Below are positions 37,707 to 39,295 of a stretch of 64,000 bases of DNA, one piece after another. This stretch comes from Alphaproteobacteria bacterium. Lineage in GTDB: Bacteria; Pseudomonadota; Alphaproteobacteria; Methylaequorales; Methylaequoraceae. The stretch is from assembly GCA_019650635.1 (NCBI GenBank), contig BOXE01000006.1, forward strand, positions 1,176 through 65,175, given 5' to 3'. Numbering within the stretch: position 1 is the first letter of the stretch; every line of letters starts with the position of its first letter. Below the pieces are notes generated by a model. The model had not been told where the DNA came from. It saw only the letters and a list, made by a program, of their open reading frames with translations, and made no database searches. The position numbers were made by a program, and so were the translations under genes.

Positions 37707-39295
37707 ATGAAGTTTTGGTTTCACATATTAAAAGAAAGTAACTCTCTAAATACTATTCTTTTATTGACTTTTTTTATCACTATAATGGGTTTATTAAGCC
37801 CAATCTTTATTATTCACATTTTTAATAGATATATCGCATTTGGCCTTCAGGGAACATTGTTTTTTCTATTATCAGGTGCTCTTTTAGTTGCAGTATTCGA
37901 GTATATATTTAGGAATATTAGGAGTAAAATCTTATGTGAACTTCTCATAAATCCAATAAAATTTTTTAAATTAGACCTAATCAAAACATTTTTTGAGAGA
38001 GAAAATAAAACCTCAAAAAGAAATTTTGTTGAAATAATTGATTTCAACAATAATTTTTTTCAATTCTTATCACCCAAAGTTCAGTCAAATCTTCTCGACT
38101 CAATTTTTGCAACTTTGATTATTATTATTCTTTTTTTTCTGGACCTATTATTAGCAACAATTTTTTTAATTCTTGTTATTATTTTCTTGTTGTTGCAACA
38201 AAGATTAATAAAAAATAAAAATCTAAACCTGGAAAAATTAAATTTATCTAAGAATGATAAATTAATAATTAAAGAGATTGGAACTAATCAAGAGCTTTTA
38301 AAATCTACTTTAGCATTTAAATATTCTGGATATTATCTAGAAAATTACTTAAATAAAAAATTAAAAATTGACTCTTCAACTGCAAATTTTGATGCTCAAC
38401 AAATTTCCATAACCAGTTTTTTTGTTTTGTTATCATCAATTATTACAATTGGATTTGGGAGTATCTTTGTCGTGAATGGAAATCTTTCTATTGGTAGCCT
38501 GATAGGATTCAACATATTTGCTACTCGAGCTTTGGGTACAATTTCATCGCACAAAATTCATATTCTATTATTGAGAGAACAAATATGTATCTTAATGATT
38601 GCCAAGATTTTTTCAAAAACTCTAAAAATAGAGTTGAGGGTATGCAACTAAGTAAAATTATAGGGAATTATAAACTTAAAAATGTAAACTACTCTTTTGA
38701 TAATGATAATAAGTATATAATTAACAATTTCTCTGCTAATTTTAATTCTTCAGAAATTTCAGTTATTAGCGGAGCGAATGGCTCTGGAAAGACCACAATT
38801 GCAAAATTACTCATGGGACTAATTAATCCAGAATCTGGAGATATTTTATTAGATGAAACTAATTTGGAGAAACTATCATTGCAATGGTATAAGAATCAAG
38901 TAGCTTATATACCTGAAGATGTTGAAGTGTTAAATTCATCTATTTTAAATAATATTTTAATATCCAACCCTGATCTGAATGAGCAAGAGGTAAGTAGACT
39001 GCTTCAAAATGTTGGATTAGATAAAGAGTTAAAAAAATCAGATTTAACAATAACTGATTCTATAAATAAAAATTATTCAAAAGGGATTTTAAAAAAAATA
39101 CATATTGCACGGTCGATTTCAAAAACCTATCAAGTTTATATTTTTGATGATCCGTTATTATATCTAGATAAATTAGGTAAAAATATGGTACTTAAATTGA
39201 TAGCCTCATTAAAAAGAGCTGGAAAAACCGTAATTTGTTTTTCAGAAGATACGGAAATTATTAAATTAAGTGATAAACAAACTAATTTAGGGTGA
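37707..39295 (+). CDS. T1SS ABC exporter of PrtD/HasD type (no N-terminal peptidase domain), locus A. One frameshift lies at about 38,585-38,650. The NBD catalytic motifs are non-canonical.
   Basis: The TMD ORF is 37707-38651 and the NBD ORF is 38585-39295. Walker A is GANGSGKTT. The Q-loop position reads IPEDVEV, the signature position YSKGI, Walker B VYIFDDP and the H-loop position ICFSEDT. Confidence 0.75.

Follow-up and report, generated by a model that had tools for sequence, protein, structure and literature searches.

A Conserved, Non-canonical ABC Exporter in a Type I Secretion Cluster of a Marine Alphaproteobacterium

Introduction

In the accepted view, type I secretion needs a canonical ATP-binding cassette (ABC) dimer that hydrolyses ATP. 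Here, we ask whether an exporter gene in a stretch of alphaproteobacterial DNA departs from this rule or is simply broken. The stretch, called the window below, is 64,000 nt long and covers positions 1,176-65,175 of the forward strand of contig BOXE01000006.1 (Alphaproteobacteria bacterium, GCA_019650635.1). The gene, which we call ABC-A, lies at 37707-39295 on the plus strand, in a putative type I secretion system (T1SS) cluster. An earlier note on this DNA had read its nucleotide-binding domain (NBD) as degenerate and its reading frame as interrupted. We found that ABC-A is very probably real, conserved and non-canonical, with a frame break that is an artefact.

Results

Motifs of the ABC-A NBD

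ABC-A is a single ABC half-transporter gene, coding for a transmembrane domain (TMD) and an NBD, and its product has 529 aa once a missing base is allowed for. In the letters of the window, the gene is split into two open reading frames (ORFs) of the plus strand that lie in different frames, one for the TMD half (37707-38651, 314 aa) and the other for the NBD half (38585-39295, 236 aa). The NBD ORF matched PF00005 ABC_tran with 84.4 bits (cut-off 25, the Pfam gathering score). The Pfam scan gave no match for the TMD ORF, and the fold of ABC-A was therefore taken from a structure model, as described below.

The motifs were placed by phmmer alignment to the solved NBDs of ABCB1 and HlyB, and all of them are given on the plus strand. 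Walker A (GANGSGKTT, 38771-38797) is intact. At the Q-loop position, Gln is replaced by Glu (GAA, 38915-38917), with IPEDV aligned under vsQe. The signature reads YSKGI for LSGGQ (39074-39088, aligned under lSgGq). Walker B reads VYIFDD (39134-39151, with IFDDP under llDEa), and the catalytic Glu is thereby changed to Asp (GAT, 39149-39151). The H-loop position holds Glu for His (39245-39247, with CFSE aligned under iaH). This motif reading had been made in the earlier note from the letters alone, and the alignment showed it to be exact. The same note had the protein ending about 15 residues after the H-loop, and we counted 15; the last codon ends at 39292 and is followed by the stop codon at 39293-39295. 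By comparison, the median number of residues after the H-loop is 35 in 111 related exporters (described below), and HlyB extends about 35 residues past the last position aligned with ABC-A. Thus, the short C-terminus is real, and ABC-A is about 20-30 C-terminal residues shorter than related exporters. Meanwhile, ABC-A retains the residues for Mg-ATP binding and for closing of the NBD dimer, namely the Walker A Lys, the first Walker B Asp, the signature Ser and Gly, and the D-loop Asp; the A-loop aromatic residue is present in most members of the family.

Conservation of the Non-canonical State

The ABC-A family comprises about 70 clusters, in which most full-length members have 527-537 aa and identity goes down to 37%. 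Conservation was tabulated for 37 family proteins and 24 loci. The invariant residues include K362 (Walker A Lys), D481 (first Walker B Asp), G460 (second Gly of the signature), D488 (D-loop Asp), and P483. The signature follows the consensus xSxG[IV]xKK, in which Ser is found in at least 90% of the members and the second Gly never varies. The catalytic position is DD in 36/37 proteins and 22/24 loci. Only P0008, L018, and L019 have the canonical DE at Walker B, yet they keep the non-His H-loop and the short C-terminus. Since these three sublineages carry DE, the Glu/Asp state has switched more than once. The H-loop position is occupied by Glu, Asn, or Asp, never by His, and all members stop 15-20 residues past it. 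The Glu-to-Asp change, the H-loop residues, and the short C-terminus recur in orthologues down to 37% identity and are therefore not due to chance.

The Q-loop Glu had been counted in the earlier note as part of the degenerate set. This residue is indeed present in the window, but it is restricted to the close clade of the window (at least 88% nucleotide identity), and Gln is found in all other family members aligned.

Furthermore, the ratio of non-synonymous to synonymous substitution rates (dN/dS) of the NBD is 0.03-0.2, similar to that of the TMD. This low ratio and the motifs kept in the orthologues indicate that the non-canonical NBD is a maintained state, and judging from these alignments, it is conserved under purifying selection and not in decay. 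In addition, no other conserved component of the cluster evolves as fast as ABC-A, which has 40-50% identity in distant loci versus 72-83% for ABC-B (the second exporter, see below) and 68-79% for TolC. The fast evolution of ABC-A parallels that of the variable substrates.

The Frame Break

A frame break between the TMD and the NBD had also been noticed earlier. It is present in the letters of the window, but it is almost certainly a one-base sequencing or assembly error and not biology. At the Ser-Ala junction between TISS and AQNSY (38548-38550, plus strand), the window has one base fewer than 8/8 close relatives (88-99% nucleotide identity), reading TCGCA where the relatives read TC[G/A/C]GCA. 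Conceptual fusion across this junction recovers intact 529-aa proteins, with 99% (P0001) and 97% identity. In addition, the ABC-A gene is uninterrupted (528-536 codons) in 24/25 genome loci, and the sole broken one (L025) belongs to a nanopore-derived metagenome-assembled genome (MAG) that is disrupted in many places.

The missing base is one of at least 16 single-nucleotide indels, deletions in the majority, that are private to the window between 27 and 49 kb (28745, 32557, 32586, 32643, 33139, 36149, 36551, 36617, 38548, 42803, 43024, 43235, 45389, 45448, 45453, and 45530). They split at least seven genes, including those for the GAF-PAS cyclase, both repeats-in-toxin (RTX) proteins, ABC-A, the DUF1538 protein, a cyclic nucleotide monophosphate (cNMP)-binding protein, and the CHASE2 cyclase, and all of the genes so split are intact in L015 (95% identity). 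Outside the cluster, the 6.7 kb at 4900-11600 are the worst part of the window for indels and contain no stop-free stretch longer than 130 codons. For example, uvrA is found there in three pieces (10326-11381, minus strand), and secD/secF are also fragmented (6528-8260, plus strand); the frames of the fragments differ in both cases. The base present in all close relatives, the many private indels, and the shattered uvrA and secDF together lead to the conclusion that the break in ABC-A is an error of this kind.

We also considered a programmed frameshift or separate genes for TMD and NBD, and rejected both, as 38548-38550 contains no slippery sequence and the relatives all have one continuous ORF. 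A strain-specific pseudogene was likewise rejected as the leading explanation, given that the housekeeping genes uvrA and secDF are shattered as well. Corrected sequence, which according to the earlier note might bring back canonical motifs, does not do so: the intact orthologues keep DD, a non-His H-loop, and the short C-terminus. Nor does the decaying pseudogene envisaged there agree with a disruption that is private to an error-rich window and with dN/dS of 0.03-0.1 in comparisons on the branch of the window. For instance, the NBD of the window differs from that of L003 by one non-synonymous and nine synonymous changes. In general, frame breaks in this window should not be taken as pseudogenes, given the many single-base indel errors.

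Fold and Classification

The AlphaFold2 model of an intact ABC-A orthologue (predicted local distance difference test, 85.6) has the type IV exporter fold with the TMD fused to the NBD, and it terminates on a beta-strand after the post-H-loop helix. The top Foldseek matches of this model were HlyB (8dck, template modelling (TM) score 0.85-0.87), PCAT1, TM287/288, and PrtD. There is no N-terminal C39-like domain, and the architecture of ABC-A is therefore PrtD-like. Against the curated NCBIfam families of T1SS ABC proteins, ABC-A scored below every cut-off, with 201.7 bits for LssB (TIGR03375, cut-off 693.1), 158.5 for PrtD (TIGR01842, cut-off 510.15), and 138.9 for HlyB (TIGR01846, cut-off 725.55). 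By these profile scores, ABC-A is a divergent T1SS ABC protein and not a member of any named subfamily.

Relatives Outside the ABC-A Family

A profile search with ABC-A was run against 1.84 billion representatives. The scores showed a gap, with ABC-A family representatives at 450-764 bits and the next matches at 250-350 bits. These next matches are mostly 550-570 aa long, and their best curated families are LssB, PrtD, and HlyB, all under the cut-off. Residues were counted in 111 representatives of this outgroup (P0245-P0386), which is an uncurated set of T1SS ABC exporters of PrtD length, none of them at an NCBIfam cut-off, with the signature L[SPA]xG[IV]. The first position of the signature is Ser in 47, Pro in 36, and Ala in 28; the second Gly is found in 110/111 and Ile or Val at the last position in 93/111. 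The Q-loop Gln is present in 109/111. The second acid of Walker B is Glu in 100 and Asp in 10, while the H-loop has His in 48 and Asn, Ser, Gln, Asp, or another residue in 63. That is to say, the H-loop His is replaced in 57% and the Walker B Glu is kept in 90% of the outgroup. Asp without His was also found in at least seven outgroup clusters.

These counts show that the altered signature and the variable H-loop are traits of related T1SS exporters, a set that is large at this sampling. The earlier reading of a degenerate pattern therefore calls for a qualification: the odd signature and the loss of His are common in the nearest relatives, whereas the loss of Glu is unusual. Going by the same counts, what ABC-A adds over its relatives is the change of Glu to Asp together with the C-terminal truncation.

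One outgroup contig (L033) carries a row of ABC, AprE-type membrane fusion protein (MFP), and outer-membrane efflux protein genes, and no second ABC gene was found within 5 kb upstream and 10 kb downstream; of four outgroup contigs, it alone is long enough to show one. ABC followed by MFP was also seen on two other, shorter outgroup contigs.

Fused T1SS ABC proteins with two halves, of about 1300 aa (P0242, P0243, P0310, P0334, and others), are among the top matches to the ABC-A profile beyond the family. Their first half is PrtD-like without a C39-like domain and their second half is LssB-like with one, and several have only one recognisable Walker A. Such proteins might have served as a Rosetta-stone case for a heterodimer of ABC-A and ABC-B. 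This case was rejected, as ABC-B, at 26-27% identity, is no closer to the C-terminal half of such fusions than to generic T1SS ABC proteins. With no specific kinship between ABC-B and these second halves, the fusion proteins do not tie the two exporters together.

The Second Exporter, ABC-B

ABC-B (47994-50165, minus strand) encodes 723 aa with a C39-like domain, a TMD, and an NBD, and its C-terminus is of full length. The C39-like domain has no Cys in its N-terminus. ABC-B is nearest to the HlyB family, with 488 bits against a cut-off of 725. In the alignment of its NBD to P-glycoprotein, Walker A reads GKSGCGKST, there is no Q-loop Gln, the signature is LATGL, Walker B is LDDA, and VSNR (Asn) stands at the H-loop. 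These features are kept in 21-22 orthologues with 72-100% identity (DD, Asn or Ser at the H-loop, and signature L[SA]TG[LM]). A homologue search with ABC-B retrieved only close orthologues (at least 80% identity) and no outgroup. The ABC-B gene is on the strand opposite to ABC-A, some 9 kb away and beside its own adaptor gene (MFP-B), and it co-occurs with ABC-A in 21/21 loci that reach far enough.

Thus, the Glu/His pair and the canonical signature are absent from both ABC-A and ABC-B, which bears out the earlier claim that two exporters in the window lack the canonical set. Among the cluster genes scanned, ABC-B was the only other exporter, and no partner was found whose signature, Walker B Glu, and H-loop His are canonical.

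Genes of the Secretion Cluster

The host is a low-GC marine alphaproteobacterium of an abundant bacterioplankton lineage. The GC content of the window is 25-30% outside the repeat genes, and the homologous loci come from single-cell genomes and MAGs labelled as uncultured Alphaproteobacteria, Pelagibacteraceae, or Rickettsiales. The Rfam scan of the window found three tRNAs and no rRNA.

The two exporters belong to a cluster of 15 genes that is syntenic in every locus extending far enough. The order is GAF-PAS cyclase, 250-aa protein with an HD motif, TolC, substrate 1, substrate 2, ABC-A, MFP-A, 99-aa protein, P-II-like protein, DUF1538 protein, cNMP-binding proteins 1 and 2, CHASE2 cyclase, MFP-B with its cNMP-binding domain, and ABC-B. 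The only TolC-like outer-membrane factor of the cluster (30008-31348, plus strand; PF02321, 181.9 bits) is syntenic in each locus whose sequence reaches that far upstream. It is followed on the plus strand by two substrate candidates. The first (31405-34948) has 1160 aa when intact, as in L015 (L015:3731-7213), with a FecR-like domain and GC-rich GPGGPGDF repeats, and it is broken into at least four ORFs in the window. The second (35029-37654) has 884 aa in L015 (L015:7294-9948), with a FecR-like domain and C-terminal RTX repeats (GGxGxD), and at least three ORFs in the window; PF00353 (RTX) matched both window 37052-37654 and the intact L015 protein. Next to ABC-A, 4 nt after its stop codon, lies MFP-A, an HlyD-family T1SS adaptor (39300-40571, plus strand; TIGR01843, 290.7 bits, cut-off 208.65). 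Because TolC, two RTX-type substrates, ABC-A, and an HlyD adaptor form an operon-like row, we regard ABC-A as the inner-membrane engine of a T1SS.

The FecR-like domains are N-proximal in both substrate candidates, and both gave a sub-threshold match to the LapA-type retention module (about 23 bits, cut-off 50). There are thus hints that the candidates may be surface-retained, adhesin-like proteins. Tandem repeats with Gly/Pro-rich units and 44-54% GC occur at 32400-34200 and 50630-51000 of the window. An ORF of 321 aa adjoining ABC-B (50395-51360, minus strand) encodes GPDGPPPGDMGPGGM repeats, and it may be a substrate of ABC-B.

The remaining genes concern cyclic nucleotides in large part. 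An inserted base at 28745 breaks the gene for the GAF-PAS nucleotide cyclase (27305-29243, plus strand) in the window. The 250-aa protein (29210-29962, plus strand) had no Pfam or NCBIfam match; it is, by sequence only, a possible cNMP phosphodiesterase with a THDMNHQG motif. It carries ALTHDMNHQGRR, and its gene keeps synteny with both cyclase genes and those for the cNMP-binding proteins. A similar motif, HD(x2)H, is known from class I cyclic-nucleotide phosphodiesterases. On the minus strand, there are two small cNMP-binding proteins (42985-43881), the first of which is split in the window, and a CHASE2 nucleotide cyclase (43896-46266), which has 791 aa in L015 and is split in the window by private indels. 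MFP-B (46263-47987, minus strand), a T1SS adaptor of the HlyD family, has a cNMP-binding domain at its N-terminus (PF00027, 70 bits); its identity across loci is 73-100%. No description of a cNMP-binding HlyD adaptor was found in our literature search. Between the two secretion loci (40573-42777, minus strand) lie the genes for the 99-aa unknown protein, the P-II-like protein, and the DUF1538/UmpAB-like membrane protein. They are among the most conserved of the cluster; for example, the P-II-like protein has 80-100% identity except in the error-rich MAG L025.

Strict synteny joins the cNMP genes to both exporters. A regulatory link, which the earlier note had raised, is therefore plausible, and given this synteny and the cNMP domain on MFP-B, control of the exporters by cNMP may plausibly be proposed.

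Discussion

A Working Model and Its Alternatives

How could such an exporter work? On balance, we lean slightly towards a working T1SS exporter whose NBDs would be dominated by ATP binding and would hydrolyse slowly. For ABC-A in itself, slow hydrolysis with binding dominant is a proposal on which we judge the evidence evenly balanced. ATP binding would close the NBD dimer of ABC-A and open the secretion conduit. Hydrolysis would be slow and the ATP-bound state thus long-lived, which is how degenerate sites behave in heterodimeric ABC exporters. ABC-A would most likely act as a homodimer with its own adaptor MFP-A, while ABC-B and MFP-B would make up another translocon, likewise non-canonical, with TolC and the cNMP signalling genes in common. 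Two homodimeric translocons on one TolC are favoured by the gene arrangement and by the single-ABC context of L033. A review states that at sites with Glu changed to Asp, ATP hydrolysis is far slower than the transport cycle and ATP is held for minutes, and that a D-loop mutant of TAP becomes a nucleotide-gated facilitator (PMC7756269).

Several points weigh against slow hydrolysis in a conserved T1SS exporter. First, DE in three sublineages (P0008, L018, and L019) means that the catalytic position is not strictly fixed. Second, Asp could support useful turnover in a slow-growing oligotroph. Third, the fast evolution of ABC-A could reflect relaxed constraint. Fourth, ABC-A is far under every curated T1SS ABC cut-off, with LssB as the best NCBIfam match. 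Finally, the strict co-occurrence of ABC-A and ABC-B leaves room for a joint complex.

This last point leads to the first alternative, in which ABC-A and ABC-B act in one machine with two ABC proteins, as a heterodimer or as a mixed assembly of ABC proteins and adaptors. We consider it unlikely. The two genes lie about 9 kb apart and always co-occur in the 21 loci that reach far enough, and the cluster contains two ABC/MFP pairs and a single TolC. In their motifs, the two NBDs complement each other in part, as ABC-B has no Q-loop Gln and the signature of ABC-A is more divergent; the Walker motifs of ABC-B (DD, no Gln, Asn) combined with the signature of ABC-A would make a classic degenerate site. 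However, the other site would still have Asp and no His, plus LSTGL, and heterodimerisation would therefore yield no canonical site. The fused tandem proteins of about 1300 aa among the best non-family matches to the ABC-A profile also speak for a joint machine, but ABC-B is not nearer to their C-terminal halves (26-27% identity) than to generic T1SS ABC proteins. A T1SS with two ABC proteins has been proposed as a precedent in the case of RtxB/RtxE of MARTX (PMC4316617). Here, however, the genes are on opposite strands, each ABC gene abuts its own HlyD adaptor, and a relative of ABC-A outside the family (L033) stands in a system with a single ABC.

The second alternative is an ordinary hydrolysing homodimeric pump, in which Asp would catalyse at a normal rate with the aid of the polar or acidic H-loop residue, and of the Q-loop Glu in the clade of the window. 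We find it similarly improbable. The NBD is under strong purifying selection, and the H-loop residue is always a hydrogen-bonding one (Glu, Asn, or Asp) and never hydrophobic. Furthermore, His is replaced in 57% of the 111 outgroup representatives while 90% keep Glu, and the loss of His is therefore tolerated by related T1SS exporters. However, ABC-A combines the losses of Glu and His. Work on HlyB E631Q and H662A reportedly showed that HlyB activity requires both the Walker B Glu and the H-loop His, which counts against an ordinary pump. Sites with Asp for Glu are still able to hydrolyse ATP, but where measured, this change leaves hydrolysis much slower than the transport cycle (PMC7756269).

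A bolder proposal, which we regard as more doubtful still, is that both ABC proteins would be nucleotide-gated conduits. ATP binding with very rare hydrolysis would open the channel of ABC, adaptor, and TolC; the membrane potential or Ca2+-driven folding in seawater would pull the RTX substrates across; and cAMP or cGMP would license opening, acting via the adaptor with the cNMP-binding domain and via the small cNMP-binding proteins. To our knowledge, gating without pumping has been shown for no T1SS. In a variant of this proposal, the acidic H-loop residues, and the Q-loop Glu in the clade of the window, might form a relocated catalytic base.

A true recent pseudogene in this strain, as part of decay of the whole cluster, is very improbable: the frameshift and several further broken cluster genes would suit it, but the breakage is heavier still in uvrA and secDF, which lie outside the cluster, the nanopore-derived MAG L025 is broken in similar fashion, substitutions relative to the nearest relative are mostly synonymous, and ABC-A is intact in the other genomes (24/25 loci, L025 being the exception).

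Significance

The proposed slow, binding-dominated export by ABC-A and ABC-B deserves attention because a conserved and selected cluster in an abundant marine lineage has two exporters without the catalytic pair, and no pairing of them restores a canonical site. If these machines work, they would set a lower bound on the ATP hydrolysis needed for type I secretion, offer a natural case on which to test models that let ATP binding alone power or gate an exporter, and, in ocean bacteria short of energy, tie protein secretion to signalling by cyclic nucleotides. This importance is tempered by the fact that the nearest related exporters are often without His as well.

Comparison With Known Systems

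We searched the literature on T1SS of SAR11/Pelagibacter/AEGEAN-169, on degenerate T1SS NBDs, and on doubly degenerate homodimers, and found no account of the ABC-A family; no T1SS with non-canonical ABC components was found in this search either. A review of T1SS mentions degenerate sites only for the heterodimer TmrAB (PMC8277102).

Among known exporters, those of PrtD/AprD type (TIGR01842; PrtD 5l22) are like ABC-A in being half-transporters of about 530-580 aa with the type IV exporter fold and without an N-terminal C39 or C39-like domain, and in having their gene beside an HlyD/AprE-type adaptor, an outer-membrane protein, and RTX substrates. ABC-A differs from them in its score (158.5 bits, cut-off 510), its signature (xSxG[IV], not LSGGQ), DD at Walker B, the absence of the H-loop His, and a C-terminus about 20-30 residues shorter. 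HlyB (8dck/7sgr) is the best structural match to ABC-A (TM 0.85-0.87), and ABC-B shares the architecture of HlyB with the C39-like domain. Unlike HlyB and the LssB family (TIGR01846 and TIGR03375), ABC-A has no C39-like domain, and it scores 138.9 versus 725 and 201.7 versus 693, respectively. The catalytic Glu and His of HlyB are replaced in both ABC-A and ABC-B.

The four-component T1SS of Vibrio MARTX (RtxB, RtxD, RtxE, and TolC) is similar in having two ABC proteins at one RTX locus, for which a heterodimer has been proposed (PMC4316617). However, the MARTX locus is a single operon with one adaptor gene between the two ABC genes, whereas here two ABC/adaptor pairs lie on opposite strands about 9 kb apart, and only one of the ABC proteins has a C39-like domain. 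CFTR and the D-loop mutant of TAP offer an analogy for a conduit gated by ATP binding, with hydrolysis slow or dispensable (PMC7756269); the analogy to ABC-A is functional only, with no specific sequence relationship.

The closest parallel at the level of motifs is found in the degenerate sites of heterodimeric exporters (TM287/288, TmrAB, BmrCD, TAP1/2, and the ABCC family), which show the same change of Glu to Asp, loss of His, and altered signature (PMC7756269; PMC8277102). In those exporters, one site is canonical, and the chains are encoded by adjacent genes or form one polypeptide. By contrast, the ABC-A and ABC-B genes lie apart with separate adaptors, and the A/A, B/B, and A/B combinations would all give two non-canonical sites. 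What is new about this system, as predicted from the motifs, is that a conserved type I secretion cluster has two paralogous ABC exporters and the catalytic pair is replaced in both.

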